DNA from: Shigella phage B2 | Sequence record: OM858838 | Length of the DNA: 64,000 nucleotides | Direction: 5' to 3' (one strand) | Shown: in pieces, positions 3,696 to 64,000 of the stretch | How the letters are laid out: every line of letters begins with the position of its first letter | Numbering within the stretch: position 1 is the stretch's first letter | Program-made: the position numbers and the translations under genes | Notes under the pieces: generated by a model | The model's input: the letters and a program-made list of their open reading frames with translations, nothing else | Database searches by the model: none | What the model was told of the DNA's origin: nothing

Positions 3696-3830
3696 ATGTC
3701 TAAACATCCTATCGCTTGGGATATCTTTCGTATCCCTGCAAAACTCGTCTGTCGAACCAAGAAGAACCATGTAGCCAATATTGCTCGTAGCAATGGCTTC
3801 AGAGTGATTCCTGTGTTCGGTAGAGGTTAA
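3696..3830 (+). CDS. small hypothetical protein (44 aa)
   Basis: short ORF with ATG 2 nt after upstream stop; weak. Confidence 0.3.
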   Translation: MSKHPIAWDIFRIPAKLVCRTKKNHVANIARSNGFRVIPVFGRG

Positions 3831-3853
3831 AGCCCCTTCGGGGCTTGCTTTGG
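3831..3853 (+). promoter_or_regulatory. TTC-triloop hairpin (agcccc-TTC-ggggct) followed by TGCTTTGG; candidate hairpin promoter or processing site
   Basis: 6-bp perfect stem, 3-nt loop, no T-run; same architecture recurs at 6112 and 52104. Confidence 0.4.
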
Positions 3854-6112: not shown

Positions 6113-6134
6113 CTGCCTTCGGCAGTTGCTTTGG
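6112..6134 (+). promoter_or_regulatory. TTC-triloop hairpin (actgcc-TTC-ggcagt) followed by TGCTTTGG
   Basis: 6-bp stem, 3-nt loop, overlaps stop codon of phosphatase gene; identical downstream octamer to hairpin at 3831. Confidence 0.4.
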
Positions 6135-6498: not shown

Positions 6499-6759
6499 AT
6501 GTCTGAATCCCCAAATGCTACATATCGTGGAAACATGATGTGTATCAACTTTAGTTATGACTTTAAAATAGTCCTCCCTATTGAAGATGGTAAAGCCTTA
6601 CTTGAATTATTGAGTAAGGCTGAAATCTACAGGGAAGAATATAATAAAGACCCTTTCATTGAGCCAATGGATAAATCTTTAGATATCAAATTCATTGCTC
6701 GGAGTAAGTATGAGCTTCTTAAGCTCGCATTTTTAAGGACTGAGAATGAGTCTAACTAG
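6499..6759 (+). CDS. hypothetical protein
   Basis: AAGGAGG SD 4 nt upstream of ATG. Confidence 0.5.
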   Translation: MSESPNATYRGNMMCINFSYDFKIVLPIEDGKALLELLSKAEIYREEYNKDPFIEPMDKSLDIKFIARSKYELLKLAFLRTENESN

Positions 6760-20190: not shown

Positions 20191-20218
20191 AAGCCCCATC
20201 CTTGGGGCTTTTCTTTTA
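20191..20218. terminator. bidirectional intrinsic terminator between convergent + and - strand genes
   Basis: stem aagcccca/tggggctt flanked by A-run upstream and T-run downstream. Confidence 0.55.
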
Positions 20219-29200: not shown

Positions 29201-31441
29201 ATTCTTCTGAACTTCAGGAGATTTGTAAGTCTCTGGAGTAATCTCAGAAGGTAATGATTCCATGACTTTAGTCATTTCATCAGGAGTCAGTTTAAATCCT
29301 TCAGCAGTAGTCTTAACTGCCTGTACATCAGGATGATTCAGTACAGCATTAATATTATCAATAGCAGTCTGATACTGAGCTTTCTGGTCTTCTGGAGCAG
29401 CATCCATCTGTGCCTGAATCTGAGGTAATGCTTCTTCATATGCAGAGATAACACTGTTACCAACAGTAGCTAAATCTCTACGAGAAGCTTCATCTAGATT
29501 ACGTTCTTTAATGGCACGAGAGATTCTCAGAATAGAATCAGGAGAACTGATTTCTTCTTCTGGAATAGCTTTGAATACTTCTTTGGCAGCAGGTTCAGTA
29601 ACAGCATCTACAGCTTTAGTAGTTACAGTTGGTTCTACTGGCGCTTCAGTATTAGTTTGTGGGGCAGCTTGTTTAACTGATTCATTGGCAGCAGATACAG
29701 TATTTCTAAAGTCTTGTGCTCTGCTTTCAGTTCTACGAGTCTGTCTTGCATCAAATGCTGTACGACCTTGTTGAACTCCTTCTTGGATTGCTCTAGGTGT
29801 CTCACTGATAGCTGAACCAACAGCACCCATACCCGCACCAGCAATAGCAGATTCAGCAACGTTTGAACCAATACCCTCAATGAGGGATTGAGATTCGTCA
29901 GCAGAGCTACGTACCCCGAGATTAGAAGCGAACTGACCAGAAGCGCCCTGTAATGCTTCCTCAACAGTCTCTTTAGCAGCATTCTGTGAAACCCTTGAAG
30001 ATGCAGCCAGTAATCCTTTACCTTCCAGTAAAGATGGAGTTAACAGACGTGATTCAAAGGGAGCAGCAACCTTACCAGTTAATGCACCTAAAGTACCTGC
30101 CACAGCAGAAGTAACATTACCTGCTTGAGTACGTACCTGACTTCTAGCCTGAGATGGTGTAGCACCTTCAGCAATAAGGTCACGATACATTGGTGATTTT
30201 TCAGCTAACTGAGCATCAGTTAATTTATCAATCTCATCCAGTGACTGTTGAGCATTTGAACCAGCTTCTTGGAAACCAACGTAACCAATAAATGCTCTTT
30301 CAGCAGCATCCTGTAGACGCTTTCTACCAAACTCAGTAGCAGCTAATTTAGTAGCAAAGTCCTCACCATACTCTTGAGCCAATTGCTTCAAAGCACCACG
30401 AGTAGCTAACTTACCTACGATACCACCAGTCAGTAAGTCTGGAGCAGATTCAGCAATCAGAGTAGTTAATGCACCTGGTGAAGTACCATACTGTTCAGCA
30501 GTATTAACGAACTGACGTAACTGTTCCTTAGCACCAGCTACTAATGGATTATCACCTTTAGCAATATCAGCAGCTTCTCTTGCTGCACCGCCTTGTTCAA
30601 AGCGTTGCTTATTGGCTTCGATAACAGATTGTTCATATTGAACAGCAGGAGAATACTGAGAACGCTGTTCATCAACGAATTCTTTTAATGGCTTATCAAT
30701 ACCTGCTTGGTCTAACAGAGTAGGTTGCCCTACTTGGTCTTCTTGACCAGTAACATTAGCAATTAAATCCTGAGCATTCTGTAATGCTAAGTTACCTAAA
30801 CTAGTAGCAAATCTTGCAGTATTACCTGCCCATACTTGGGCAGCATTACCAATGTCTGAAAGTTCCATAGGAGCATTTTCAAACTGGTCTGTATTAGCTT
30901 GAGCAATATTTAATGCAAGTTTGTCTCTAGCCGCTTGAGGACCATACTTCTGCTGTAAAGCAGAGATAGGCATATCTTTTAAATCAGCAAGATATTGGTC
31001 ATTTGGATTAGTCTGTGCAGCTTGATTAGGAGCTACATAGTTAGGATGACTTGGGTCAAAAGGACCAGTACCACCAAATTCAGGAGATACTTGAGGATTA
31101 ATCATCCTACGATAGAAAGGCTTAGTTGCTGCAATAGCATCATAGTTAGCCTGCATATCAGGAGTGGTTGGTTGAGTCTCAGGAATATTAAAATTATTAA
31201 TATTCTGACCAGTCAACATTGCCTGCATCTGTTCACGAGTATATTTAGGACCAGATTCAGCCAGACGAATAGCTTCCTGTCCTCTCTGATATTCAGGAGA
31301 ACCTACAGGGAAATCTGTTTCTACTCCGGGTACTGGAGCACCCATCTCTACTTGTTTCTGCTGAGTGGCTTGATTTAGTTGTTGTGTTTTTTGTAAATCA
31401 ACTCCAGCTAATTGTTGTTCTTTTTCAAATCCGGTAGCCAT
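20216..31441 (-). CDS. giant virion RNA polymerase (N4 vRNAP-like), 3741 aa
   Basis: T7-like RNAP motifs: A (MLELDG, D1744), B (R1876-x3-K1880-x7-Y1888-SG), C (VFDG, D2161); Y-to-D spacing of 273 residues equals that I recall for N4 mini-vRNAP; position downstream of structural genes. Confidence 0.85.
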   Translation of the reverse strand: MATGFEKEQQLAGVDLQKTQQLNQATQQKQVEMGAPVPGVETDFPVGSPEYQRGQEAIRLAESGPKYTREQMQAMLTGQNINNFNIPETQPTTPDMQANYDAIAATKPFYRRMINPQVSPEFGGTGPFDPSHPNYVAPNQAAQTNPNDQYLADLKDMPISALQQKYGPQAARDKLALNIAQANTDQFENAPMELSDIGNAAQVWAGNTARFATSLGNLALQNAQDLIANVTGQEDQVGQPTLLDQAGIDKPLKEFVDEQRSQYSPAVQYEQSVIEANKQRFEQGGAAREAADIAKGDNPLVAGAKEQLRQFVNTAEQYGTSPGALTTLIAESAPDLLTGGIVGKLATRGALKQLAQEYGEDFATKLAATEFGRKRLQDAAERAFIGYVGFQEAGSNAQQSLDEIDKLTDAQLAEKSPMYRDLIAEGATPSQARSQVRTQAGNVTSAVAGTLGALTGKVAAPFESRLLTPSLLEGKGLLAASSRVSQNAAKETVEEALQGASGQFASNLGVRSSADESQSLIEGIGSNVAESAIAGAGMGAVGSAISETPRAIQEGVQQGRTAFDARQTRRTESRAQDFRNTVSAANESVKQAAPQTNTEAPVEPTVTTKAVDAVTEPAAKEVFKAIPEEEISSPDSILRISRAIKERNLDEASRRDLATVGNSVISAYEEALPQIQAQMDAAPEDQKAQYQTAIDNINAVLNHPDVQAVKTTAEGFKLTPDEMTKVMESLPSEITPETYKSPEVQKNVKSVLAQMNLDASSITPDVADRLVNSADTLGLSQQDVDKLKVISATGKAMSQVGKDVREGSDGFIGIQQYQQGIFRALSLGDTARAQGLLDHLNRFAEHMETKAAAFDQAAQNFTGNQPVEVINPTTGQPYLSLDGNPMTYHPVRSKGLIQEIRNDADAVRLAHTLTSQLVDGKPVDIPAQSAPVASEEVNNQTQESAPVKKETKPAPQQTTSSGIPAGPEMKSAEFTGQQQALYMQLGQYFTYNGKDYIAIGKDMGGIRAVPVNGGKTTIIPGEDTVTGKQDVLSSFNYGDTNVPYVMTPDGHIFSLRSTREVWATPSQARTDFLNHVRNTFPQPVSQQTTVEAPVETSEQTSQEEVQTPVQPEITQPVASEEAVRTEPVQGELFEKPDTVESDIQLQEKPTDVETDLMDESQLDLGSEKGVNYDILNGLQAETIRSDAKSTSDVDKEYQATNQVKKWFKPTGKRSAFLRTSNFSGRLNSIFTNGSNPITQIQNLFKGYIKPEQVTEKEVNVLRQFAGLVPAIEQSLIQSWGKLTPEGQRIFWETYPVEYFDEVRNINGENVYFLPQPVIEAMTAGMMQWFVRNASETTFNDDRTVMDILGLDNKTRPTVEQTDLLRNVGTDRQNVIDDLSREIFGVLGINADPNAPISVRDAVSKAMASEVLNVMINANLVQESVVKNSELAAVGSTKVNDSNMKNSRVFIRMNEESPAATRLVELMQNSNDLLGQLTNPQRERAGAYFGTPPKGQSTKVKNGGGQDIPEKMLAARNKASKQPHFINMGLHDLMLDKLGTQWIGRMLGIQSEENTNGAHLKSIQGSNRTIERDINTLVNGLTRMVEAGLPLATTPVYFGYNVISNFRMMLNSGDLNPQSAKLHRELVTVEPSTIELNNPQHGAFLDYAIAQGLDIAVDKLSSETARDRLNKAISTGLFRDAIDILKAAENQDAISDSDAETLLQAVKAGKEKTKTLHALYAQAQYELAVEQGKTSFQTHVMLELDGVTNGPFNSIVQLGLKDVNQDLLNKLEKGGFFYGQSDRLYNDAAEEPGFLDLYKTAAADSQQYINRMMDSVRNIPNRIAAMKNKPRQFQQKEMREIERLKNQMRVTLAASKLIGDVNIVEGENVDHPIQIGRGLLKNPVTVTVYSGGATAINRKIAMGIANGYYEAITEALRAVDAATNQEERDAAIEHINDLTNTTNELTTARVFRNGSWVQIGSPINLGQDVTMFEFDGEQIEAITQNIKIGIGAAVNESIANEFGTVVNRGKMMVYAAAVMHEVFMSRWNKEVERLETELRKEGKLSKYESLSQQQYNDIKNYLIGSMPIFNSWFTANNLDVEKLNEGILLSEEGRVPSDVHRMESRGRRELDGKMRRSTFGVDMPTYTEPGTRVMPLLVQSVEAAMQAIARDINPNNALNVFDGYINAVSHLDTGSQAINQGVLQSWNEFDLLQDFTNRFEQAMDGVNLAEELGPEADVRLEQSFRGIMEMIGADETNAPTSPEVVEAFTTLLKREAATQTAIKQGLLGGEAITSINQMTGANIPFNVKNGKQTDGEATDTRTPLEQLVANTELPTMDSVSLPKGRVTIPPTRQMTEALDRNGRTVKGHEGVKVLAKGDVVAAVREAAKSLPSRQNRITGFILDKIINSIPNDINVYVGSPEALSGVQQEMTPDTKVEFNDTFLGLTQGQNIYIGSQSIETVMHELIHAATADTVHNYYSNPEAITPAQRVEVASIEGLMNKFVNEYSSTNPETDAVVDLINTHIASGNMSQATAEFIAWGLVNPRMIDAMTQKTIAGTVTNVLKQLADSIKRLFAIGSNPDVTSYWSRLLGHTVALTDSTNPVKSNDETSYAQTNANNINRLDAETLFNKLDAGKATQDHVNHLTDTLDYLQSNIIKVIKNTGQQISGLDHYQEKLLVDSIDPEIDNSPNALIAHGFNMSEKEAFVFKMLQVSMKYGLENFSPSVLVARSLYAQARDTLKVEDFLTDPNNRSASEMALAKQRYDAVFGNTAVTTDATGRTNRLANFIALAETNEQLRNKLSQISVKRTRQTPATTLRERIGDLTNAILTWLSGLATKSLGNTDVASRLTKLAKNISHVDSEARDNLFGRLVRGAEKITDTTQDKLKSFGHTIRRQLLKVEKKVPKSVAFGITAGSAVFNDQDAQDVRDAITNIYMTIHQNGKLGTVAELINEFIGSNETNSTIHTLLTQKNMAADRARQIIREMVPGMIESTFVSLNQTEKEAIQRVVANTDMAYLFANGYDLARLNELLTNPTELAKEIASIESQLQTAGAQNAPFYIKSAYGLAKQMVHGVSPLAYQLPNAAAIARLIGTGRVRPNDATVNTVTQLVDTMASLAALKELSQTDIATVSNLINREMTKGEPNNNGMTFTLKYYSSLQGAELAKSGQNQALAGIKGFTPTLSDPNKKVIIASIKDEPSLSRRGYTRGAQVARDPQDTNKEPMYYYHSNNGGEPRWIAGVMSTLQNTVGGVNPITGRTVNGAMTPGIWRATEKNNLSTRKRSSIDNLFDANAPMPTGNNSYMQPVLNRAGSIMGYSYQMPRANKEAHLDVDNDFTKVIGAWEGRIAEEIQAARYNEMLLQRLHEMYVKDAREGRAYQYITMDENSTDHQLKEIYELMPIEMKEQAKKIWPDGKIKVRKDLLNNAFGYREPSVLNMWTGQTGYSKEFQKAFTSIAETFLGKNAARYLRLGERGLMEFVKEMKDWIVVRSIVVSAANIVSNMVHLATVGVSPVTMAKDMSTAVLAAEEYRKNEKLINEYSHYLAVNHNPKMADEYQRKISELKDSQARNPVADLIKAGLLPTIAEDLGQQDNYSLKDKLLNKMDEYTSGIPDSVKRVAKEVTLSRDSNVYFLLNRSIQYGDFVAKYSLYKHLTTRKSNPMDKDSALNRVMDEFVNYDVLPSRTRFYLDAIGLTWFLNYKIRIQKIILRTIRENPLRALFLMFGNSVESGLPNITEANLVTGSLSYNVGMGTALNGLTVHPLVSLY

Positions 31442-51265: not shown

Positions 51266-51929
51266 TTACTAACTTGGTATGAGCTACTTCTTTAGCTGAA
51301 TAGACTCCGCCTTCAATCAGTTGTCGCTGCTTCGCAGCTAGCTGTGAGGTTAATTCCCTCAGTTCACTAATTACACCACCTTCCTGCAATCCAACATTAA
51401 GTTCAATCTTATTGGCTTCAGGACGTTTGAGATGATTAAGTAATGAGTTAGCTGCTTCACACTTAACCTTCTCACTTTTAGCATTAAGCATTAAATCTGC
51501 TTGAACGTTAATAGCTTTCTGAAAGATATCAGCATTAAGAACATGAGTTGGAACCAAAGTCTGTTCATAGATAAGGTTAACTAACTTACCTTTGTTGTAT
51601 GCAGATACATAACAATGAATATCTTTAGTGGAAGTACCGGAGTTCAAGAAGTTTTGATATCGGTCTGGGAAAGTTTTTATATAAGCTTCAAAGTTGGTAT
51701 GTCCCATTAGTTTAAAACTGACATACTTAACTGCGGATAAGTAGTCTTCAATCTTAAACTTACCATCCTTCATTACATGGGTATAAGACATTAAGTTATC
51801 TCTCAATACTTCACCCATAATGGGGTCAGAGAGAATCTTATTAATCTTATCCATTAAATCCTGATTAACACTGCCTTTATGATTTTGAGGCATTACAGCT
51901 TTAAACTGTTCTACTGATAACTGAGTCAT
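51234..51929 (-). CDS. possible terminase small subunit
   Basis: immediately upstream of and overlapping large terminase gene; no motif proof. Confidence 0.4.
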   Translation of the reverse strand: MTQLSVEQFKAVMPQNHKGSVNQDLMDKINKILSDPIMGEVLRDNLMSYTHVMKDGKFKIEDYLSAVKYVSFKLMGHTNFEAYIKTFPDRYQNFLNSGTSTKDIHCYVSAYNKGKLVNLIYEQTLVPTHVLNADIFQKAINVQADLMLNAKSEKVKCEAANSLLNHLKRPEANKIELNVGLQEGGVISELRELTSQLAAKQRQLIEGGVYSAKEVAHTKLVIDGESERVDD

Positions 51930-52103
51930 AGTTACTCCGAAGGGGTTTACAAATAGATTATCAGTACTATATAGTACTTTTCACAGAAAGTAGAAGATTC
52001 TTAAGTGAGAGGTGTATTAGAACGTAACGGACTCATTATCCAATCTACGTTCAGTTGTTAAGATTGCAGTCTTAATAACATTTGATGATACATCTCTCTC
52101 TTA

Positions 52104-52126
52104 AGCACCTTCGGTGCTCTCTTTGG
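52104..52126 (+). promoter_or_regulatory. TTC-triloop hairpin (agcacc-TTC-ggtgct) followed by CTCTTTGG, upstream of tRNA cluster
   Basis: 6-bp stem, 3-nt loop; third copy of hairpin plus TTTGG architecture. Confidence 0.4.
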
Positions 52127-52134
52127 AAAGTTTT

Positions 52135-52209
52135 GGTTCTATGGTCCAGTGGAAAGGATATTCCCCTGTCACGGGAAAGGCCCGAGTTCAATTCTCGGTA
52201 GAACCGCCA
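52135..52209 (+). tRNA. tRNA-Asp (anticodon GTC), CCA encoded
   Basis: hand-folded cloverleaf: acceptor ggttcta/tagaacc, anticodon loop CTGTCAC, T-arm ccgag-TTCAATT-ctcgg. Confidence 0.8.
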
Positions 52210-52213
52210 ATTA

Positions 52214-52288
52214 CAGGATATAGCTCAAGTTGGTTAGAGCACTCGGCTCATAACCGAGAGTGTCCAGGTTCGAAACCGGGTGGAACCA
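52214..52288 (+). tRNA. tRNA-like, anticodon CAT (Met or Ile2); acceptor stem does not pair by hand-folding, possible pseudo-tRNA
   Basis: canonical D-arm tagctcaagttggttagagca and anticodon arm ctcgg-CTCATAA-ccgag, T-loop TTCGAAA. Confidence 0.4.
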
Positions 52289-52298
52289 CCAAATAATG

Positions 52299-52383
52299 AA
52301 GAGAGTCGTATAGCGGCCCAATACGCCACCCGAACGTTACGACTAGTACGGAGAACACGCAGGTTCGAATCCTGCCTCTCTTC
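52299..52383 (+). tRNA. type II tRNA-like element, anticodon unresolved
   Basis: acceptor aagagag/ctctctt, perfect T-arm gcagg-TTCGAAT-cctgc, 85 nt; anticodon arm not foldable by eye. Confidence 0.35.
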
Positions 52384-52389
52384 ACAAAT

Positions 52390-52463
52390 TGTCTCATAGC
52401 TCAGTAGGTCAGAGCGTTCCCCTGATAAGGGAAAGGTCACTAGTTCGATTCCAATTGAGACAA
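52390..52463 (+). tRNA. tRNA-Ile (anticodon GAT)
   Basis: acceptor tgtctca/tgagaca, D-arm, anticodon loop CTGATAA; T-stem has two mismatches. Confidence 0.55.
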
Positions 52464-52605
52464 CCATCCAATAGATTACAGTTCGTATCTCTTAGGGGAA
52501 TACACTTGTAATTGCGGCCCGATAGGAAAGGGTAATTTCTCGACGATGGGAGTAGACCATTGACTGTTTGGAATAGACAACTGACGCTGTGAACGAGAAC
52601 AGGAA

Positions 52606-52692
52606 CAAGATGAGTCGTATAATAGGCAAATACAATATTCATGTTTCGCTATAGGCATGGAGAAGGAACGTGAGTTCGAGTCTCACCTCATC
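52606..52692 (+). tRNA. type II tRNA-like element, anticodon unresolved (paralogue of 52299 element)
   Basis: acceptor agatgag/ctcatca, T-arm gtgag-TTCGAGT-ctcac; shares 5' tcgtat…atac D-arm with 52299 element. Confidence 0.35.
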
Positions 52693-52794
52693 AATAGTTC
52701 TTATCAGGGATTACTTACTACTATATATCATACATTACCTCGCCTGGTGTGTTGGTGTTACCTCGGTAGATAAGTAATCCACTAATAAGAATTT

Positions 52795-52880
52795 GGAAGA
52801 TTCCGCTCAGTGGTGGGCAATCCGGTTTGAACCCGGAGGTGCTGGTAACGGTAGGGGTTCGACTCCTCAATCTTCCGCCA
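52795..52880 (+). tRNA. tRNA-Ser (anticodon TGA), type II, CCA encoded
   Basis: acceptor ggaagat/atcttcc, anticodon arm tccgg-TTTGAAC-ccgga, long variable arm, T-loop TTCGACT. Confidence 0.75.
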
Positions 52881-52886
52881 ATATTT

Positions 52887-52962
52887 GATAGGATAGCTAA
52901 CTCGGTAAAGCGGCAGACTGTTAATCTGCGACATTAGGGTTCAAATCCCTATCCCATCGCCA
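52887..52962 (+). tRNA. tRNA-Asn (anticodon GTT), CCA encoded
   Basis: anticodon arm gcaga-CTGTTAA-tctgc, T-arm taggg-TTCAAAT-cccta. Confidence 0.8.
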
Positions 52963-53127
52963 AACTTGCAGGTAACTCTGCAATCCGTGACCAGTCGGTA
53001 TGTTTATTAGTATGTAAAAGGCTGGGCTTCCTGCCTCTCATAGCCATACTCTTAAATGAATAACTGGTAGTCCAGCCAAGCGCACGAAGATGGGGACCCT
53101 CACCATCGGACAAAACGAGGGTACTAA

Positions 53128-53204
53128 GCATCCTTAGCTCAGTTGGATAGAGCAGTAGCCTTCTAAGCTATTGGTCACTGGTTCGAATCCAGTAGGGTGT
53201 ACCA
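53128..53204 (+). tRNA. tRNA-Arg (anticodon TCT), CCA encoded
   Basis: D-arm gctcagttggatagagc, anticodon loop CTTCTAA, T-arm actgg-TTCGAAT-ccagt. Confidence 0.8.
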
Positions 53205-53205
53205 A

Positions 53206-53281
53206 GCTCACTAAGTTCATATGGGTGAACGCCTGCCTTGTAAGCAGGATGAACGCGGTTCGATTCCGTGGGTGAGCACCA
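53206..53281 (+). tRNA. tRNA-Thr (anticodon TGT), CCA encoded
   Basis: acceptor gctcact/ggtgagc, anticodon arm cctgc-CTTGTAA-gcagg, T-loop TTCGATT. Confidence 0.8.
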
Positions 53282-53283
53282 AT

Positions 53284-53369
53284 GGGAGTATGGTGAAATC
53301 GGTAGACACAAGGGATTTAAAATCCCTCGGCTTATAGCTGTACGAGTTCGAGTCTCGTTACTCCCACCA
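53284..53369 (+). tRNA. tRNA-Leu (anticodon TAA), type II, CCA encoded
   Basis: acceptor gggagta/tactccc, anticodon arm aggga-TTTAAAA-tccct, long variable arm, T-arm acgag-TTCGAGT-ctcgt. Confidence 0.75.
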
Positions 53370-56906: not shown

Positions 56907-57149
56907 ATGAACGAAATCATTATACTCTCTTCTCTTGGTTTTATCTTTGGTTGGATTACATCAAGAGTTAACTACAAACGTAAGATTATTAGATGCATTA
57001 GTAACATTACCTTTGAATCTAACTCTTCTAACAAGGATTTCAAGAATGGTATAGACAGGGGAATAGAATCTACTAAAGACTACATAATCAGAGTACTTAT
57101 CAACAACAAGTTAGATAAGGATTATAGTAAAAGATATAATAAAGACTAA
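56907..57149 (+). CDS. small membrane-anchored early protein
   Basis: N-terminal hydrophobic helix. Confidence 0.45.
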   Translation: MNEIIILSSLGFIFGWITSRVNYKRKIIRCISNITFESNSSNKDFKNGIDRGIESTKDYIIRVLINNKLDKDYSKRYNKD

Positions 57150-57360
57150 CTAACTACTGTCAATATGTAATTTAATACAGTACTAACTAAGGAATACCAA
57201 TGAAGTTACATGATATCTTATTCATAGTACTAGCTATTGTACTGTTTGGATTAGCAGTATATCTAAGTAAATAATTATTATTTTTTAAAGGGTTAGAGAA
57301 TTTTTAATAATTACTTACCAATGTAGTATTACTGCACACAATCTTTTATTAATCCGAATA

Positions 57361-57371
57361 CCCCCCCCCCC
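57361..57371 (+). repeat. poly-C homopolymer tract (11 C)
   Basis: uninterrupted C11 run in an otherwise AT-rich intergenic region, 18 nt upstream of a triloop hairpin. Confidence 0.9.
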
Positions 57372-57388
57372 ATACTTCACACATCCAT

Positions 57389-57401
57389 GAGTCTTCGACT
57401 C
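57389..57401 (+). promoter_or_regulatory. TTC-triloop hairpin (gagtc-TTC-gactc), candidate vRNAP-type hairpin promoter
   Basis: 5-bp stem, 3-nt loop, followed by TAGTGGAG; upstream of gene at 57447. Confidence 0.4.
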
Positions 57402-57446
57402 TAGTGGAGCAATGGTGCTCTACTTAATCATGATTAGGAGTATGTT

Positions 57447-57788
57447 ATGAAACCTGTTAACTCTATCGGTATCTTCGGTGCTGTATCTTCCTCAACTGTA
57501 TCTGCATTGAATGCAATTGAACGTGGTGCAGTAGCTGTAGCCAATACTGCCAACATGGCTGTAGCTGTTACTGAATGGGGCAATGATGAAATCGAGAACC
57601 TTCGTCATCACCGTGCTATCAAACGTGAGGTAGAGGGTGAAATCTTCCGTACTAAATATGTTATGGAAGCTGCTAAAGAAGTAGCAGAAGTACATGCAGA
57701 AGCAGAGAAATCCATGAAGGATGCATCACCAGAGGTTAAAGCAGTGTTCGATGCACTGGTAGCCAAACATTTGGGTAACAAGAAATAA
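57447..57788 (+). CDS. hypothetical early protein
   Basis: AGGAG SD; 113 aa. Confidence 0.55.
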   Translation: MKPVNSIGIFGAVSSSTVSALNAIERGAVAVANTANMAVAVTEWGNDEIENLRHHRAIKREVEGEIFRTKYVMEAAKEVAEVHAEAEKSMKDASPEVKAVFDALVAKHLGNKK

Positions 57789-57804
57789 TCACTAAGGCTC
57801 AAGG

Positions 57805-57990
57805 ATGAGCCAAGGAACAATTATGTTAATCAACATTGAAATTATTATCCGTAAACTAAAGTGCAAAGCAATCTATCATCTGAATGTTATTGCTCTACAT
57901 GCATACGCTAAAGGTCTACGTACCTCCGGTAATATTACATCAGTAGCTGTACGGTATGTACGTATCAAAACCATATCTTCATCACTGTAA
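57805..57990 (+). CDS. small hypothetical protein
   Basis: 61-aa ORF only. Confidence 0.3.
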   Translation: MSQGTIMLINIEIIIRKLKCKAIYHLNVIALHAYAKGLRTSGNITSVAVRYVRIKTISSSL

Positions 57991-58201
57991 TCAATCTCTT
58001 ACCTCTGGCTAATGCTGGAGGTCAAGAGCAAATCACACATTACACATATGATAGATAGTATGTATATATTACCAGTGTATAAACATACACCATGCTGTAA
58101 CGCTCTAGGAAGCTCTACAAGAGGTTTTGAGAAGAGGTAATAGGGTAGGAGAGTTGATACTATTCTATCTCAATCTAGGTAGCATTGAGGACTTATATTG
58201 C

Positions 58202-58231
58202 ACTTACTTCGTAAGTATCTCACTTCGTGAG
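58202..58231 (+). promoter_or_regulatory. tandem pair of TTC-triloop hairpins (acttac-TTC-gtaagt and ctcac-TTC-gtgag)
   Basis: two perfect hairpins 2 nt apart immediately upstream of ORF at 58234. Confidence 0.4.
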
Positions 58232-58233
58232 TA

Positions 58234-58572
58234 ATGGGTAGAGCAAAAGAGAGAATTCACATGGCTATCATCCATTCAATCATTGGTTCTAATTCAGAAC
58301 CATCAACAGTAGTAGTCAACAAGTATAAGGAACCATACGATGTATATATCGGTAGAGGTAGTCTATGGGGAAATCCTTATACAGTTCAAGAACATGGCAG
58401 AGAACTATGCATTGCAATGTATGAGCAATACATACGTGCAAGACTACATCAAGAACCTGATTTATATCTTCAATTACTTGAGCTTAAAGGTAAGAAGCTA
58501 GGCTGCTTCTGTAAACCTAAACCATGTCATGGTGATGTATTAGTTAGACTCATCCAAGAGTACTCAAACTAA
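58234..58572 (+). CDS. hypothetical early protein (start may be ATG 58261)
   Basis: 112-aa ORF; Cys/His-containing C-terminal half. Confidence 0.5.
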   Translation: MGRAKERIHMAIIHSIIGSNSEPSTVVVNKYKEPYDVYIGRGSLWGNPYTVQEHGRELCIAMYEQYIRARLHQEPDLYLQLLELKGKKLGCFCKPKPCHGDVLVRLIQEYSN

Positions 58573-58648
58573 TAATCTAATACCCTTCAATTCCAATAAA
58601 CATACTATAGAGCACTTAGTTACTATCTAGGTGTTCAGGAGTGTATTT

Positions 58649-58855
58649 ATGTCTATTAAATTAACTGTTGTTGCTAAACGTTATAACTCAGAGAAACTCA
58701 TCAGAATACTTATGCCATGGGGTTCTAACATCTCATATGGTAGACGTTGGCAAGTGTCATTTAGGGATGGTAGAGGTAGACACTATGACCATTCATTCGT
58801 AGCTAAACCAACTCGTAAACAGATTCGTAAACTCATCAAGGATATCAACAAATGA
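58649..58855 (+). CDS. small basic early protein
   Basis: AGGAG SD before ATG 58649. Confidence 0.45.
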   Translation: MSIKLTVVAKRYNSEKLIRILMPWGSNISYGRRWQVSFRDGRGRHYDHSFVAKPTRKQIRKLIKDINK

Positions 58856-59142
58856 AACAGTACAAATTACTTGAAGGCTTTCACTCTATGCTTCCTCAAG
58901 AAGCTATCGTTCCATCTCAACCATCAGACGTTCAGGAAGGTGATTACGTCAAGATTGGTGTAGAAACCAATGATGGTAAAGCAACAGAGAAGTTCTGGGC
59001 TGTTGTGTACTGCATTGACAGAGATAACTGGAAGTATGGAGTACGTATCAATCAAGACCTCTGTCAAACTCAATTACATGGTCTTAGTGATGGTGATGAA
59101 CTCATTGTTGAATTCAAACATATCGTAGCTGTTATTAAATAG
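58852..59142 (+). CDS. hypothetical early protein
   Basis: ATGA-coupled ORF. Confidence 0.5.
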   Translation: MKQYKLLEGFHSMLPQEAIVPSQPSDVQEGDYVKIGVETNDGKATEKFWAVVYCIDRDNWKYGVRINQDLCQTQLHGLSDGDELIVEFKHIVAVIK

Positions 59143-59228
59143 GAGCTATCAAATGGAATGGTGGTTAGCAGAGATTGTACCTAGCTTATTCGGAGCTATC
59201 GTAGGTGGTCTGGTTGTATATCTAGCTG

Positions 59229-59474
59229 TTGCTAAAGGAGAGGATGATGATGATGCGTAAGTCATTACATGTAGGTACTAAAACTGATGTTATTAAACGT
59301 CGCTCTAAACCAGTATTAGATGTGGAATTTTTACATGTACGTATTAGTGAAACTTATAATGAATGTGGTCAGATGATTGCTGCTGGTGTTAATCCTTATG
59401 CTGCTGTTGTAGCTATGGATACCAAGCTCAGTCGTATTGTTACATTCAATCATCCTAATCTTCTGAACATGTAA
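59229..59474 (+). CDS. hypothetical early protein (start within ATGATGATGATG run)
   Basis: AAGGAG SD followed by four tandem ATG codons. Confidence 0.45.
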   Translation: MLKERMMMMRKSLHVGTKTDVIKRRSKPVLDVEFLHVRISETYNECGQMIAAGVNPYAAVVAMDTKLSRIVTFNHPNLLNM

Positions 59475-59483
59475 TATCTTCAT

Positions 59484-59551
59484 CACCGTCTTCGACGGTG
59501 GTGGAGTTCTCCCTTAAGTTCTCCTTCTCCTGTAAGAGCGACTTCGTCGCT
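59484..59551 (+). promoter_or_regulatory. tandem pair of TTC-triloop hairpins (caccgtc-TTC-gacggtg at 59484-59500; agcgac-TTC-gtcgct at 59537-59551), each followed by GTGGA
   Basis: 7-bp and 6-bp perfect stems with 3-nt loops, 36 nt apart, upstream of codon-optimised gene at 59593. Confidence 0.45.
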
Positions 59552-59592
59552 GGTGGAATAATCCAATTCAATTAACTATCGAGGTAATTATC

Positions 59593-60009
59593 ATGGCAGT
59601 ATTAAACGGTTCTAACAACGCTTCTTCTATCATCGGTGCTGCTCTGGGTGGTAAACCTGCTGCTGGTGCACAGCGTCCACAAGCTGAAGTATTTATCAAC
59701 GTTGGTATCAACGTACAGATGCCTAACGAAGAAGGTGAGATGGTTGATACCTTCCTGTCTCTGCCTTTCGGCCTGCCGTTGGATACCATGAATGAACTGG
59801 TGATTCGTGGTAATAACCAGCAGTGGAATGAGCAGGCTGCTGCTCGTAATGAGCTTCTGAAAGCTCTGGTCAAAATGGGTGAAGCTCTGGATGCTGGTAC
59901 TGGTACAGAGATGCCTAAGCTCAGTGTTCAACTGTATCGCCGTAAGGCTCAGGAAGAACATCAGGCCAGCAACAACGCAATGGCTCAGATTCTGGCTGCA
60001 TTGAGCTAA
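59593..60009 (+). CDS. abundant early protein (codon-optimised), function unknown
   Basis: host-optimal codons; flanked by tandem hairpins upstream and tetraloop terminator downstream. Confidence 0.75.
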   Translation: MAVLNGSNNASSIIGAALGGKPAAGAQRPQAEVFINVGINVQMPNEEGEMVDTFLSLPFGLPLDTMNELVIRGNNQQWNEQAAARNELLKALVKMGEALDAGTGTEMPKLSVQLYRRKAQEEHQASNNAMAQILAALS

Positions 60010-60018
60010 TCGAATAAT

Positions 60019-60047
60019 GGGATACCTTCGGGTATCCCTTATTTTTT
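60019..60047 (+). terminator. intrinsic terminator with cTTCGg tetraloop
   Basis: 8-bp stem gggatacc/ggtatccc, TTCG loop, T-run. Confidence 0.55.
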
Positions 60048-60056
60048 GGAGGGGAC

Positions 60057-60239
60057 ATGCGTGTATTAGCAGTGTTAATTCTGTTTCTAGTTATCTTCGG
60101 GAAACTAGTACTCAATGTTATCGAAGAAGATACAGTGCAATACCAGCATCAAATGAAATGCGTCAAAGAGAAGATTGCCAACGGGATTCCTCGTAGTGCA
60201 ATCAAGTTAACTACTGATTCATGTGAGGTTATCAAATGA
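60057..60239 (+). CDS. small membrane protein
   Basis: 60-aa ORF with N-terminal hydrophobic helix. Confidence 0.4.
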   Translation: MRVLAVLILFLVIFGKLVLNVIEEDTVQYQHQMKCVKEKIANGIPRSAIKLTTDSCEVIK

Positions 60240-60403
60240 ATTTATTCTTGTTGTTAGTGTTCATCGTGCTGCGCACGCTCATTGGGTTGTTCTGGTTTGT
60301 AGTGGAAATGGTATGGTTCCTGTTCTGCGTAATGATTGGAATCCTATCTTTACCCTATTACTTAGGTGTCATCATCAGAGCAGTAGCTAAGCCCTCGAAA
60401 TGA
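60236..60403 (+). CDS. small membrane protein (55 aa, not in ORF track)
   Basis: ATGA coupling; two hydrophobic helices; followed by hairpin agccctc/gagggct. Confidence 0.4.
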   Translation: MNLFLLLVFIVLRTLIGLFWFVVEMVWFLFCVMIGILSLPYYLGVIIRAVAKPSK

Positions 60404-60433
60404 GGGCTATATTACGCTTAAGGTAGATAGTCA

Positions 60434-60637
60434 ATGAATGGAGATTTGATAGATATATTAGAACTAATAGTTGTTCTCAAATTAGGTAATAGAAATAAAG
60501 TATGTAACCACATAATGATACATAGAATGTGTAATGATATTCCATGTAGTGAATGCCTACTTAATACAAGTAAAGTATATATTTCTGACTATCCAATTCA
60601 AATCATTGAAATGAAAGGTAAGCTAAATGAACAATGA
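60434..60637 (+). CDS. Cys-motif mini-protein family member 1
   Basis: N-terminal MNGDLIDILELI, C-terminal C…C…C..C cluster. Confidence 0.5.
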   Translation: MNGDLIDILELIVVLKLGNRNKVCNHIMIHRMCNDIPCSECLLNTSKVYISDYPIQIIEMKGKLNEQ

Positions 60638-60839
60638 TTTATTCTTAATTCTTAGTTCTATTAAAGCTGCATTAGGTGAAGGTAGAGGTAAAAATACTTC
60701 TGCTGATTTTCTATGTAATGGTATTCATGATACTGACCCTGAACAATGTCATTATGTTAATTGTATTGATTGTATAGTTGGATATAAAGATTCAACTAAA
60801 TATGCACATCAGATAATCCAGACATGGAAAATATTATGA
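60627..60839 (+). CDS. Cys-motif mini-protein family member 2
   Basis: MNNDLFLILSSIK…C…C..C.DC; overlaps neighbours. Confidence 0.5.
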   Translation: MNNDLFLILSSIKAALGEGRGKNTSADFLCNGIHDTDPEQCHYVNCIDCIVGYKDSTKYAHQIIQTWKIL

Positions 60840-61045
60840 ATAAAGAACTTAAGTTAATTTTATTTACTTTAAAAATGAAAATTAAATTTGGTAATGGAAC
60901 TGCCGAAAACTTATGTAGAAGTATGGTAATAGATATTGATGGAGAATTAATTCCTCAATGTACTCAAATTTCTTGTTTTAATTGTCTATTTTATCAAGAT
61001 TCTACTTATGCAGAAAAGGTAATACATGTCTGGCATCAACTCTGA
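60836..61045 (+). CDS. Cys-motif mini-protein family member 3
   Basis: MNKELKLILFTLK…C…C..C.NC; ATGA coupling at 60836. Confidence 0.5.
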   Translation: MNKELKLILFTLKMKIKFGNGTAENLCRSMVIDIDGELIPQCTQISCFNCLFYQDSTYAEKVIHVWHQL

Positions 61046-61271
61046 ATTATTATTCATACTTCAAAGTATTAAAAACTCTATGGCAAAAGAAGAAGTACAA
61101 AATAAGAGAGGTATTCAATGGGGAGAATCAGATAAATTGTGTACAGAACATTTATATAATGTATGTGGGGATAAAACATCTAAAAATATATGTGATGATT
61201 GCTTAATTGGATACAAAGATAATGTTGGATATGCATCCAATATGATTATTGTAATTCAAAAGTTAATCTAA
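61026..61271 (+). CDS. Cys-motif mini-protein family member 4
   Basis: …SELLFILQSIK…C…C.DC. Confidence 0.5.
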   Translation: MSGINSELLFILQSIKNSMAKEEVQNKRGIQWGESDKLCTEHLYNVCGDKTSKNICDDCLIGYKDNVGYASNMIIVIQKLI

Positions 61272-61344
61272 GGGCTATCAATATTGGTAGTCCAATATTA
61301 ATGTCTCGTTAGATAGTTGTACTTCAATCCAAGAGGATATCAAT

Positions 61345-61584
61345 ATGTCAAAGAAAACTAAGTCAGCTAAACCAGTAGAAGTTAAGTTAGGTAATGTTCC
61401 TGATTATACAGTGACTTATAGTCGTCAAGAACAGTTATGGGGAGTCCATATTAATGGTATCTCTGCATACATTCTCAAACGACCTATTGGTAAAAAGAAT
61501 ATGTATTACGTAGGTACTCGTTATTTCAAAACACTACGTGATGCAATCTTCAGTGTTGTATTGGGGAATTCACTTCCCTTCTAG
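61345..61584 (+). CDS. small basic hypothetical protein (not of the Cys family)
   Basis: 79-aa ORF with own SD. Confidence 0.45.
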   Translation: MSKKTKSAKPVEVKLGNVPDYTVTYSRQEQLWGVHINGISAYILKRPIGKKNMYYVGTRYFKTLRDAIFSVVLGNSLPF

Positions 61585-61592
61585 GAGAAGTA

Positions 61593-61766
61593 ATGAACCA
61601 AGAGTTAATACTTATTCTCTCAGCCATTAGAGAAAATAAAGGAATATGTACTAAATATTCTGTTAAATGTCATGGAATAGATTGTGGAAACTGTATTCTA
61701 GCAGAAGTATATATACAAAACTTCTACAAAGATTATATAGTTAAAATGGGTGAGAGAATATTATGA
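61593..61766 (+). CDS. Cys-motif mini-protein family member 5 (57 aa, not in ORF track)
   Basis: AGGAG SD; MNQELILILSAIR…C…C..C.NC. Confidence 0.45.
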   Translation: MNQELILILSAIRENKGICTKYSVKCHGIDCGNCILAEVYIQNFYKDYIVKMGERIL

Positions 61767-61993
61767 ATAGAGAATTACTAACAATAATAGAATCTCTATG
61801 TAAAAAGGTAGTATTTAAAAGCCATTCAGGGCTAGAGTTCATAGAAACTAAGCCTGAAATGTGTCGTATTATTTCATTAAGAGTTCCTCGTAGATGCGAA
61901 GGAACTAGTTGCTGTAATTGTTATTTCTCAAGGAGTAAACAATTACATGAAGTTTATACTTTATATTTAAAAAGACTTATTCAACGTATTTAG
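61763..61993 (+). CDS. Cys-motif mini-protein family member 6
   Basis: MNRELLTIIESLC…C..CCNC. Confidence 0.5.
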   Translation: MNRELLTIIESLCKKVVFKSHSGLEFIETKPEMCRIISLRVPRRCEGTSCCNCYFSRSKQLHEVYTLYLKRLIQRI

Positions 61994-62015
61994 TTTTCCT
62001 TGTCGCTTCGCTCCT

Positions 62016-62028
62016 CAGCCTTCGGCTG
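62016..62028 (+). promoter_or_regulatory. TTC-triloop hairpin (cagcc-TTC-ggctg), candidate hairpin promoter
   Basis: 5-bp stem, 3-nt loop, followed by TTCTGGTGAA; upstream of macro-like gene. Confidence 0.4.
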
Positions 62029-62058
62029 TTCTGGTGAATTATAAACTTAGAGGTAAAT

Positions 62059-62562
62059 ATGTTAGAAGCTCGCGGTAATATGCTTGAAATGGAATGTGAT
62101 GCGTTGTGCATTACTACCAATGGATTTGTTAAAAGCAATGGTGCATCAGTTATGGGTGCTGGTATTGCAAAGCAGATGCGAGTAACTATTCCTGGACTGG
62201 ATAAAATTCTAGGTCAGAAGATTGCTCGTGAAGGTAACAATGTTCATTTCTTATTAAATTATAACAATATTGGAATTGTATCCTTCCCTGTTAAACCAAT
62301 AACAGAAATTAGTAATGGTGAGAACTTTGTTAAACATAAGTTCTTCCCTGTAGGTACAACAGTTCCGGGATGGGCATGTAAAGCAAACATCGATTTGATT
62401 GTACGTTCATGCCAGCAACTGGTAGCACTGGCTGACCAATATGGTTGGCAGAAAGTCTTATTACCAAGACCGGGATGTGGTGCTGGTGAGCTTAACTGGA
62501 GCCATGTGAAGAAGGTTATTGAACCTTTGTTAGATGACAGGTTTATCGTCTGCACCTATTGA
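62059..62562 (+). CDS. macro-domain-like protein (possible ADP-ribose binding/hydrolase)
   Basis: N-terminal …DALCITTNGFVKSNGASVMGAGIA… resembles macro-domain Gly-rich ADP-ribose pocket; GAGG SD. Confidence 0.5.
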   Translation: MLEARGNMLEMECDALCITTNGFVKSNGASVMGAGIAKQMRVTIPGLDKILGQKIAREGNNVHFLLNYNNIGIVSFPVKPITEISNGENFVKHKFFPVGTTVPGWACKANIDLIVRSCQQLVALADQYGWQKVLLPRPGCGAGELNWSHVKKVIEPLLDDRFIVCTY

Positions 62563-62569
62563 GGTGAGT

Positions 62570-62773
62570 ATGGGTAACCAATTAATAGTAATATTTAAAG
62601 AATTACTTCACTCAGGAGTGAATCCTACTTTATGTCATAACTATATTGGCACTGAATGTGTAGACATACCATCATGCGCAAATTGCCCTTTATCTAGTAC
62701 TTCATTCGCAAAACATCCTGAAAGAAATTTCCCTAATCAGTTATTTACTGTATTGGAGAAGTTGAATGGATAA
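62570..62773 (+). CDS. Cys-motif mini-protein family member 7
   Basis: GAGGTGAG SD; MGNQLIVIFKELL…C…C…C.NC. Confidence 0.5.
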   Translation: MGNQLIVIFKELLHSGVNPTLCHNYIGTECVDIPSCANCPLSSTSFAKHPERNFPNQLFTVLEKLNG

Positions 62774-62996
62774 ATTAATTACCATTTTAAATGGAATATA
62801 TAATTTACCTGAACGCAAAGACTACGCTCCAAAAGAGTACATATGTGATTTAATCATATGTCCTGATGTACTTTGCAGTAATTGTCCAATGGGCAACCCA
62901 CATTATTTAAATCCTGACAAAGAATTATTTGTCACTCAAATCCATAAAACATTGGAAGTCATGAACCATGAAACAAGAAACTCAACTCCTGATTGA
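62766..62996 (+). CDS. Cys-motif mini-protein family member 8
   Basis: MDKLITILNGIY…C…C.NC. Confidence 0.5.
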   Translation: MDKLITILNGIYNLPERKDYAPKEYICDLIICPDVLCSNCPMGNPHYLNPDKELFVTQIHKTLEVMNHETRNSTPD

Positions 62997-63891
62997 ATCT
63001 ATGTTCAACCGTCACCAATCTCGTGACCTAATTAGAAATGAAATTAGAACTTCACCTGAAGTTATGGAGTTAGTTAGTGCTGCTGTAGATAAAGCACTGG
63101 AATGGGTAGAAGGTGATTACTTTGAAAGTAAGAACAAACGTCTGGCATTATTGGATACCAATATCCTAGAAGACTTCTACATTGATGTTGCTGGTTCATT
63201 GGCTCAATTTGGTAAGGCTAAGTATACCCAGATAGTAGGTATGGTATCTGGAATGATTTCTACTATGCCTCAGAAAGAGGCTATAAGGACTGCTGGAGAG
63301 CTTATCTCATTAGCAGCTATGGTAGACCTCATTGACCTGATTCCAGCCTCTATGAGCGTTACAGGCTCTATGGAACTGGTATCCCGTATACAGCTTGAAC
63401 CAAAGACATTGGAACTGATTAACCAGTATCAATATCTGCCTCCTATGCTTGTTCCCCCTGAACCAGTTAAATCAAATACTGGTAGTGGGTATCTGTCCAT
63501 CAAATGGGATTCCCTGATTCTGAAGAAGAATCATCATGAGTTTGATATCTGTTTGGATAATATCAACAGATTTAACTCAGTAGCTTTCTCTCTGGATGAC
63601 CGTGTAATCCGTAATATTAGGGATAACCGTAAACATCTGGATAGTGCTAAAGCTGATGAATCTGCTGATGAGTACAAAGCACGAGTTGATTCATTTCTGA
63701 AAATGGAAAAGGAATCTATGCGTGTATTTGCAATGCTCATCAATGAAGGGAACAGATTCTATCTGACTCACAAGTATGACAAACGAGGTCGTACTTACTG
63801 TCAGGGCTATCATGTCTCCTACCAAGGGAATACCTATCGTAAAGCTATTCTTGAATTAGCTGATAAAGAAATCGTACCCATTGAGGAATAA
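62968..63891 (+). CDS. T7-like RNA polymerase, N-terminal subunit of a split (two-gene) phage RNAP (N4 RNAP II-like)
   Basis: C-terminal YDKRGRTYCQGYHVSYQGN matches the T7 RNAP D.RGR.Y…QGND region; gene continues as a separate ORF. Confidence 0.65.
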   Translation: MKQETQLLIESMFNRHQSRDLIRNEIRTSPEVMELVSAAVDKALEWVEGDYFESKNKRLALLDTNILEDFYIDVAGSLAQFGKAKYTQIVGMVSGMISTMPQKEAIRTAGELISLAAMVDLIDLIPASMSVTGSMELVSRIQLEPKTLELINQYQYLPPMLVPPEPVKSNTGSGYLSIKWDSLILKKNHHEFDICLDNINRFNSVAFSLDDRVIRNIRDNRKHLDSAKADESADEYKARVDSFLKMEKESMRVFAMLINEGNRFYLTHKYDKRGRTYCQGYHVSYQGNTYRKAILELADKEIVPIEE

Positions 63892-63893
63892 TC

Positions 63894-64000
63894 ATGTTTT
63901 GCATTATTACAGCAGCATATCTACGTCTTAAGAATAAGGTAGATGAAGATATAGTAATTGGTTCATGGCTTGCTGGTTTATTAGAGCTATGTCTTGAAGT
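63894..64000 (+). CDS. start of the next gene, presumably the catalytic subunit of the split RNAP (truncated by window end)
   Basis: GAGGA SD then ATG at 63894; open to end of window. Confidence 0.4.
   Translation, partial: MFCIITAAYLRLKNKVDEDIVIGSWLAGLLELCLE

Follow-up and report, generated by a model that had tools for sequence, protein, structure and literature searches.

At its left end, the genome of Shigella phage B2 carries a set of small DNA hairpins with an invariant TTC loop, and the question raised by this locus is what these hairpins do. The analysis covered a stretch of 64 000 nucleotides (nt) of sequence record OM858838, referred to here as the window, in which six such hairpins lie between positions 57389 and 62028. 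An initial annotation, made from the letters alone, had proposed all six as hairpin promoters for the virion RNA polymerase (vRNAP), as known from phage N4. To judge from sequence, five of the six are very probably early promoters of the virion-packaged RNA polymerase: they have the architecture of the N4 promoters P1–P3, they are syntenic with them and their stems carry compensatory changes among relatives. The proposal did not hold for the remaining hairpin (58202-58216), which lacks a start motif. The sequence architecture, its statistics, the synteny and the covariation were established directly.

The inverted repeats are present exactly where they had been annotated, and all are perfect, with stems of 5, 6, 5, 7, 6 and 5 bp and a TTC loop:

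57389-57401, + strand: hairpin GAGTC-TTC-GACTC

58202-58216, + strand: hairpin ACTTAC-TTC-GTAAGT

58219-58231, + strand: hairpin CTCAC-TTC-GTGAG

59484-59500, + strand: hairpin CACCGTC-TTC-GACGGTG

59537-59551, + strand: hairpin AGCGAC-TTC-GTCGCT

62016-62028, + strand: hairpin CAGCC-TTC-GGCTG

The template strand of each folded as predicted in single-stranded DNA (ssDNA) folding. A scan of both strands of the whole window for cTTCg hairpins with a stem of at least 5 bp returned 12 on the + strand and none on the − strand, a strict strand bias. Chance expectation was obtained from 300 dinucleotide-preserving shuffles, which yielded 0.11 cTTCg hairpins per strand (maximum 2); the observed number is ∼100-fold over chance, and ∼0.008 would be expected in the 4.7 kb early region. 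The supposed confinement of the family to this region did not hold, as six further + strand cTTCg hairpins were found at 2434, 2665, 3830, 6111, 51326 and 52104.

None of the six early hairpins has a downstream T-run, in agreement with the initial annotation, which had also stated that each is followed within 2–6 nt by TGGA or TGGTGA. This second statement was correct in part. TGG follows five of the six, 58202-58216 has none, and the hairpin at 58219 is followed by TGGG instead of TGGA. The variable gap conceals a fixed rule: in the five, T-G-G always lies at +10 to +12 counted from the loop centre, with a spacer of 3, 2 or 1 nt for stems of 5, 6 or 7 bp, respectively. The chance of finding TGG at that spacing in five of six hairpins, given the frequency of TGG, is 7 × 10−9. 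When hairpins with any 3- or 4-nt loop and TGG at +9 to +11 were sought on both strands, just scattered 4–5 bp matches with unrelated loops were obtained.

The five hairpins with the motif are designated predicted promoters A–E and are listed with their score in R1, the covariance model described below:

57389-57407, + strand: predicted promoter A, T at −4, TGG at 57405-57407, predicted +1 at G57406 (35 bits)

58219-58237, + strand: predicted promoter B, TGG at 58235-58237, predicted +1 at G58236 (28 bits)

59484-59504, + strand: predicted promoter C, first of a tandem pair, TGG at 59502-59504, predicted +1 at G59503 (35 bits)

59537-59556, + strand: predicted promoter D, second of the tandem pair, TGG at 59554-59556, predicted +1 at G59555 (38 bits)

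62016-62034, + strand: predicted promoter E, TGG at 62032-62034, predicted +1 at G62033 (35 bits)

The loop centres are at 57395, 58225, 59492, 59544 and 62022, and the predicted starts lie 26–90 nt 5′ of start codons with a Shine–Dalgarno sequence. The leader of promoter A measures 41 nt from the predicted +1 to the ATG at 57447 of the first gene, for which no homology to N4 gp1 was detectable. Promoter B precedes a gene of the DUF4326 family. Promoter D follows C by 52 nt, and the pair stands before a homologue of N4 gp2, an ssDNA-binding cofactor of RNAPII, with a leader of 38 nt from D. Promoter E heads an operon of a macro-domain gene and RNAPII subunit 1 (the small subunit). Sigma-70-like promoters are rarer than expected in the early region (19 found versus 29.7 expected). 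The two genes that link this region to N4 are:

59593-60009, + strand: N4 gp2 homologue gene (33% identity to N4 gp2, E = 3e-15; the orthologue in Escherichia phage Pollock is annotated 'N4 gp2-like')

62968-63891, + strand: RNAPII small subunit gene (N4 gp15-like, from the orthologue annotations in Salmonella phage FSL SP-058 and Pollock)

As a positive control, the same hairpin scan was run over the whole N4 genome. It returned four c-TNC-g hairpins with stems of at least 5 bp on the + strand, three of which are the mapped promoters P1–P3; the fourth, centred at 40154, is without TGG. The three promoters are:

centre 96, + strand: N4 P1, GTTGC-TTC-GCAAC tta TGGA, before gp1

centre 565, + strand: N4 P2, AAGAAGC-TCC-GCTTCTT t TGGA, before gp2

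centre 4554, + strand: N4 P3, AAGCTGC-TCC-GCAGCTT t TGGT, before gp15

N4 promoters consist of a heptamer centred at −11 between inverted repeats, with a binding region from −17 to −5 and an initiation region from −4 to +6 (PMC4496689). The five window sites resemble P1–P3 in the 5–7 bp stem and 3-nt loop, in the G-purine-A loop of the template strand, closed by C-G and centred at −11, and in the T at −4 followed by T(−1), G(+1) and G(+2), with +1 at 11 nt from the loop centre. The TTC loop of P1 is that of the window; N4 overall uses TTC or TCC, whereas the window always has TTC. The arrangement is also syntenic, the hairpins lying at the left end in early-gene orientation before the first gene, gp2 and the RNAPII genes. 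Differences from N4 are that the window has five initiating hairpins instead of three, that gp2 is preceded by a tandem pair, whereas N4, a G7C-like phage and a Kaypoctavirus have just one hairpin there, and that two sites have an additional upstream hairpin lacking a start motif.

The genome was rightly stated to encode a vRNAP homologue:

20216-31441, − strand: virion RNA polymerase gene (3741 amino acids), aligned to N4 gp50, the presumed hairpin reader

The product, an enzyme of the T7-like single-subunit polymerase family, has 27% identity to N4 gp50 over the polymerase domain and keeps both catalytic Asp motifs. By the sequence of events known for N4, the left end would enter the cell, host gyrase would supercoil the DNA and the inverted repeats would extrude. 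The template (−) strand would then present a hairpin with a 5-bp core and a c-GAA-g triloop, to which the injected polymerase would bind, and RNA would start at the G 11 nt past the loop centre, at 57406, 58236, 59503, 59555 and 62033. These starts would serve the first gene, the DUF4326 gene, the gp2 homologue (by the tandem pair) and the macro-domain/RNAPII subunit 1 operon.

Related genomes were compared over positions 57000-64000 of the window. Identity is 90–93% to the left genome end of the Salmonella phages FSL SP-058 (hereafter SP-058; ∼92%), SP154, UTK0001, UTK0002 and As2, and 78–84% to Pollock and the Klebsiella phages Pylas, KpCHEMY26 and MY01. The close relatives are N4-like podophages of the family Schitoviridae, in the subfamily Humphriesvirinae plus the genus Triduovirus, and the window is the genome of an N4-like podophage of this family, genus Ithacavirus, in permuted form. 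Coordinate 1 of the relatives' linear records corresponds to ∼57361 of the window, the genome left end; since the records start there, the window is a permuted copy, and its terminal repeat is collapsed in the assembly. A run of 11 C at 57361-57371 marks the start point of these records. Positions 57361-64000 thus form the early left end, and the middle genes, those of replication, occupy the + strand of 1-20186. Promoter A and the first gene are contained in the terminal repeat of Pollock and Pylas, which measures 610–769 bp. A search of IMG/VR with the gp2 homologue found three loci, two of them copies of SP-058 and Pollock.

All five sites are syntenic in SP-058, Pollock, Pylas, KpCHEMY26, TR2 and a metagenomic relative; in SP-076 site E alone lay in the portion compared, and it is kept there. 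The relatives that keep the five sites span four genera, and the stems change by compensation at A, B, C and E. The hairpin of promoter A is the same in SP-058, Pollock and TR2 and has 7 bp in Pylas and KpCHEMY26. The stem of B is GTACC/GGTAC in Pylas and KpCHEMY26 and CCCTC/GAGGG in TR2, with unchanged spacing. At C the stem is exchanged for ACTGGC/GCCAGT in TR2, and at E it is CTGCC/GGCAG in Pollock and ACAGCC/GGCTGT in SP-076 and the metagenomic relative. Promoter D is invariant across the relatives. The observation to which we give weight is that no orthologous site has lost its hairpin.

An alignment of 35 distinct instances, including N4 and two other Enquatrovirinae, is paired at 100% in the inner five pairs, with 2–4 pair types per position. 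Its covariation score is 0.76, compared with 0.17 for shuffles and at most 0.19 when the partners were slid. Within the clade C-TTC-G, T at −4 and G at +2 are invariant in 30 of 30 distinct instances, and G at +1 (29/30) and T at −1 (28/30) are nearly so. The covariance model R1 was made from the 35-instance alignment. In the window it gave exactly five matches at 28–38 bits, all on the + strand between 57375 and 62042; the next match scored 19 bits and the best minus-strand match 16 bits. R1 and R2, the model for the second spacing class described below, together detected no further strong members in the window and none on the minus strand.

Several points weigh against the assignment of the five sites to the vRNAP. 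The pairing in the alignment is partly there by construction, the sites having been chosen by a perfect-stem scan. At site E, TGG is displaced by 1 nt in TR2 and −1 is G in KpCHEMY26. In N4 the template G at −8 is contacted by residue R904 of the specificity loop. This G is not conserved here: the non-template base at −8 reads A, T, A, T and G at the five sites and varies across the clade, the contact being absent because no G-C pair stands beside the closing pair. For the N4 enzyme a '-8G' on the template strand is a requirement (PMC3715699). The hairpin is read in N4 by K114, R119, W129, D901 and R904. The loop-reading residues among them (K114, R119 and W129) are not alignable at 27% identity, so that recognition probably differs in detail from N4; in the alignment with gp50 the −11 recognition element falls in a gap, and an R stands opposite R904 in a part where the alignment is unreliable. 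That vRNAP binds, that the hairpins extrude and where the 5′ ends actually lie is carried over by analogy from N4. Finally, the GenBank record of Pylas labels its copy of promoter C (2545-2577) 'terminator'.

This label leads to the reading of the hairpins as intrinsic terminators or attenuators that act in RNA between early genes. They are GC-containing stem-loops between genes, on the coding strand, as such a role would require. It was rejected, and we regard it as extremely unlikely: no T-run follows any of the six and a terminator scan does not report them, the conserved TGG keeps its distance to the loop centre and not to the stem end, the hairpin at 57389, ∼30–65 nt from the genome end, has nothing upstream of it that could be terminated, and the identical elements of N4 are proven promoters. 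Nor are cUUCg triloops a feature of terminators; the canonical terminators of this genome have 7–9 bp stems, 4–6 nt loops and T-runs. The initial annotation had described them as 8-bp stems with TTCG tetraloops and T-runs, and the tetraloop was found in just two of ∼8, at 60019 and 44239. The former closes the gp2 unit and is the only terminator-like site in 57000-64000 that follows a gene and has a GC-rich stem:

60019-60038, + strand: intrinsic terminator, 8-bp stem, TTCG tetraloop, T-run

The Pylas 'terminator' at 2545-2577 is the promoter C hairpin, and its label is likely to be an annotation error.

Promoters they may be and still be read by another polymerase, either phage RNAPII with gp2 or host RNA polymerase with a phage factor. 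The -8G contact and the loop-reading residues of N4 are not demonstrably conserved, and the middle promoters of phage LUZ7, which are attributed to RNAPII, likewise have hairpins (PMC9163698). The five sites precede the RNAPII and gp2 genes themselves, whose products are therefore not needed for their own first expression. The geometry is that of the N4 vRNAP promoters and not of the N4 RNAPII promoters, and all five lie within the first 4.7 kb to enter the cell. A reader other than vRNAP is accordingly quite unlikely in our judgement.

The number of sites and the tandem pair had both been called unusual. Neither is, in view of LUZ7, in which ONT-cappable-seq mapped nine early start sites, mostly at hairpins, and in which the two strongest stand in tandem, 33 nt apart, before Drc, an ssDNA-binding analogue of gp2 (PMC9163698). 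The LUZ7 tandem hairpins were located as AGACC-TAC-GGTCT (centre 3669) and CAGGC-TAC-GCCTG (centre 3701), before gp14. In the present clade the C and D tandem, 52 nt apart and with TGGA at each, is fixed in all Humphriesvirinae and Triduovirus genomes examined. The early hairpins of LUZ7 resemble those of the window in their c-T(T/A)C-g triloops and in T at centre +7. They differ in stems of 4–5 bp and starts 13–14 nt from the hairpin centre, whereas the early class of the window has 11 nt, as in N4, and spacings of 13–15 nt occur in the window in the second class only, outside the early region. The structural work on N4 has led to the speculation that each of ∼four packaged polymerases takes one promoter (PMC13434306, PMC13492108); five initiating sites fit this idea imperfectly and are no strong anomaly.

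Hairpins of the same loop type also occur without a start motif or inside open reading frames (ORFs):

58202-58216, + strand: auxiliary hairpin, centre 58209, 16 nt 5′ of the promoter B loop centre, no TGG at +10 to +15

62005-62011, + strand: mini-hairpin heptamer GCTTCGC, 14 nt 5′ of the promoter E loop centre, no start motif

2434-2446, + strand: cTTCg hairpin CCTGC-TTC-GCAGG, inside an ORF, no TGG, invariant in relatives

2665-2677, + strand: cTTCg hairpin TTCAC-TTC-GTGAA, inside an ORF, followed by tctcATGG

51326-51338, + strand: cTTCg hairpin GCTGC-TTC-GCAGC, antisense in a gp69-like late gene, conserved, 19 bits with R1

The auxiliary hairpin 58202-58216 is separated by 2 nt from the hairpin of promoter B, and both fold side by side in ssDNA. 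The two have the core ACTTCGT in common and differ by one compensatory pair, and 58202-58216 is probably, on this sequence likeness, a local 16-nt duplication of the promoter B hairpin alone. It is present in UTK0001, and the metagenomic relative has CTTAC-TAC-GTAAG; SP-058, Pylas and TR2 do not have it. From 98% identity over the stretch, sequences not read directly, it is probably also in SP154 and UTK0002. Without an initiation motif, and not being shared by SP-058, Pylas and TR2, it does not count as a complete promoter and may at most be an auxiliary or competing binding site. The heptamer at 62005 sits within the 12-mer GTCGCTTCGCTC, which is invariant in all relatives; the metagenomic relative has GCTCCGC. 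The hairpin at 2665 is replaced in Pylas by CTCAC-TAC-GTGAG, a compensatory and non-synonymous change; it abuts the ATG that was taken as a start codon by the annotators of SP-058.

The oligonucleotide d(GCGAAGC), and d(cGNAg) in general, are classic extraordinarily stable DNA mini-hairpins. The exact complement of the former, GCTTCGC, occurs at 62005, 2437 and 51329, and c-GNA-g is found on the template strand of every member of the family. The likeness is to a structural motif and not to a functional family, and its stability goes beyond the nearest-neighbour folding used here. Stable GNA mini-hairpins on the template strand could serve many DNA transactions, and hairpins without a start motif (58202, 62005) or within ORFs (2434, 51326) do exist in this genome, as would be expected if the family served a non-transcriptional purpose, for instance in the priming or origin of replication, in packaging or the recognition of ends, or as hot spots of recombination. 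Each of the five early sites, in contrast, lies 26–90 nt before a start codon with a Shine–Dalgarno sequence, in the orientation of the gene, and is coupled to the same TGG start motif as in N4, and a purely structural role for them is very unlikely.

Three of the hairpins outside the early region form a second spacing class, in which TGG lies at loop centre +13 to +15, 3 nt further out than in the early class:

3830-3853, + strand: class-2 site S2, AAGCCCC-TTC-GGGGCTT g CTTTGG, hairpin 3830-3846 (R2, 45 bits)

6111-6134, + strand: class-2 site S3, AACTGCC-TTC-GGCAGTT g CTTTGG, hairpin 6111-6127 (R2, 43 bits)

52104-52126, + strand: class-2 site S4, AGCACC-TTC-GGTGCT ct CTTTGG, hairpin 52104-52118 (R2, 47 bits)

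The class was defined on five sites, S1–S5 (two beyond the window), with 22 distinct instances from four genera. C-TNC-G, T at centre +7 (the −4 T of the early class), T at +12 and G at +14 are invariant, and G at +15 is present in 21 of the 22 instances; the usual sequence is CTTTGG. The middle base of the loop takes all four values, giving G-N-A on the template strand. The stem covariation score is 0.54, compared with 0.13 for shuffles. The stem of S2 covaries (AAGCGCC in Pylas, AACCGCC in TR2), and relatives have TTC, TCC or TAC as the loop of S3. The intergenic region that contains S4 is divergent, and the site stands 17 nt ahead of the first tRNA gene. SP-058, Pollock and Pylas keep it ahead of their rightward tRNA unit; in TR2 it has an entirely different stem and loop, GCCCC-TGC-GGGGC, with the same CTTTGG spacing. 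No class-2 element was found in the whole N4 genome.

The middle promoters of LUZ7 have a GC-rich hairpin with a stem of at least 6 bp, a loop of 3–4 nt and a G start ∼15 nt away, and are attributed to RNAPII (PMC9163698). Class 2 resembles them, as a sequence motif only, in its GC-rich stems of 7, 7 and 6 bp, its 3-nt loop and the GG at +14/+15, and also in its location in the middle-gene region and before tRNAs. The spacer is 3, 2 and 1 nt for stems of 5, 6 and 7 bp and thus shrinks as the stem grows, so that the motif takes its distance from the loop, in the manner of promoters; terminators take theirs from the end of the stem. Pollock and Pylas have lost the T-run (gCCTCGG) and retain GG. 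Counting against a promoter role, S1 and S5 are followed by canonical terminators within ∼10 nt, and some of the orthologous sites run directly into a canonical terminator, unlike LUZ7 middle promoters; the Pollock annotators label several such elements terminators, S3 among them. On balance, the sequence features lean towards class 2 being later-class promoters, for middle genes and tRNAs. A role as terminator or pause elements is doubtful, and some other role is slightly less plausible still.

Tentatively, the clade may use template-strand GNA hairpins in two registers, the first for early promoters of vRNAP and the second for promoters of middle genes and tRNAs. The reader of the second register would be either RNAPII together with gp2 or, after entry of the DNA into the cell, vRNAP. 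A register-2 hairpin followed immediately by a terminator, as at S1 and S5 beside replication genes, would give a short RNA, for example a replication primer. vRNAP is needed for N4 DNA replication, with which the primer idea would fit. In this reading the auxiliary hairpins at 58202 and 62005 would tune polymerase loading.

Upstream of S4, on the + strand, there is a conserved sigma-70-like element TTTACA-N18-TATAGT, within the palindrome TACTATATAGTA. An argument that no plus-strand transcription arrives at S4 from upstream is weakened by this element, which thereby counts against a promoter role of class 2. The palindrome is perfect, occupies 51964-51975 between the gp69-like gene and the tRNAs with TTTACA 18 nt 5′ of it, and is shared with SP-058, Pollock, Pylas and TR2; divergent late promoters of host RNA polymerase probably have it as their −10 element. 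The tRNA genes that follow S4 are:

52135-53369, + strand: tRNA gene cluster (Asp, Ile, Ser, Asn, Arg, Thr and Leu), with a weaker Rfam match at 52216-52288

The Rfam search matched tRNAs alone. The content of the cluster differs from those of SP-058 and Pollock. In the Pollock record (KM236242) four tRNAs at 6673-7002 are annotated on the minus strand and are placed on the plus strand by ARAGORN, which is likely to be an annotation error.

Some further features of the early region were recorded. The ORF behind promoter B, 58234-58572, is annotated from its first ATG in SP-058 and from the in-frame ATG at 58261 in UTK0001 and Pollock. The predicted start at 58236 would cut the first ATG, and the DUF4326 gene therefore probably starts at 58261. 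The 240 nt at 57790-58029, which include an ORF of 61 amino acids (57805-57990), are an insertion relative to all relatives and had no match in a phage collection of 50 697 records. About seven small ORFs (67–81 amino acids), apparently paralogous and with a common Cys-rich pattern, lie at 60434-61271, 61763-61993 and 62534-62996; no Pfam match was obtained for the two members searched.

A literature search found no paper describing hairpin promoters in this clade, and papers on SP-058, TR2 and Achromobacter N4-like phages contained nothing on promoters. The mechanism itself is already known from N4 and LUZ7 and would here be extended to another group of phages; the second conserved spacing class, which is not in N4, and the start-less auxiliary hairpins are side results of modest interest. 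The predicted promoters would provide a promoter map for the early region of Ithacavirus, Pollockvirus, Pylasvirus and Triduovirus, with five starts predicted to the nucleotide, and would correct database records in which promoter hairpins are named terminators. The N4 rule, comprising the type of loop, T at −4 and initiation 11 nt from that loop, would hold at 27% identity of the polymerase, and the N4 contact -8G would be dispensable, which bears on the evolution of vRNAP specificity and on the idea that promoter number matches the ∼four packaged polymerases (PMC13492108). If class 2 does consist of promoters, hairpin-type middle promoters, so far known from LUZ7 only, would extend to enterobacterial N4-like phages, and promoter recognition by RNAPII, a long-standing question, would become directly testable.

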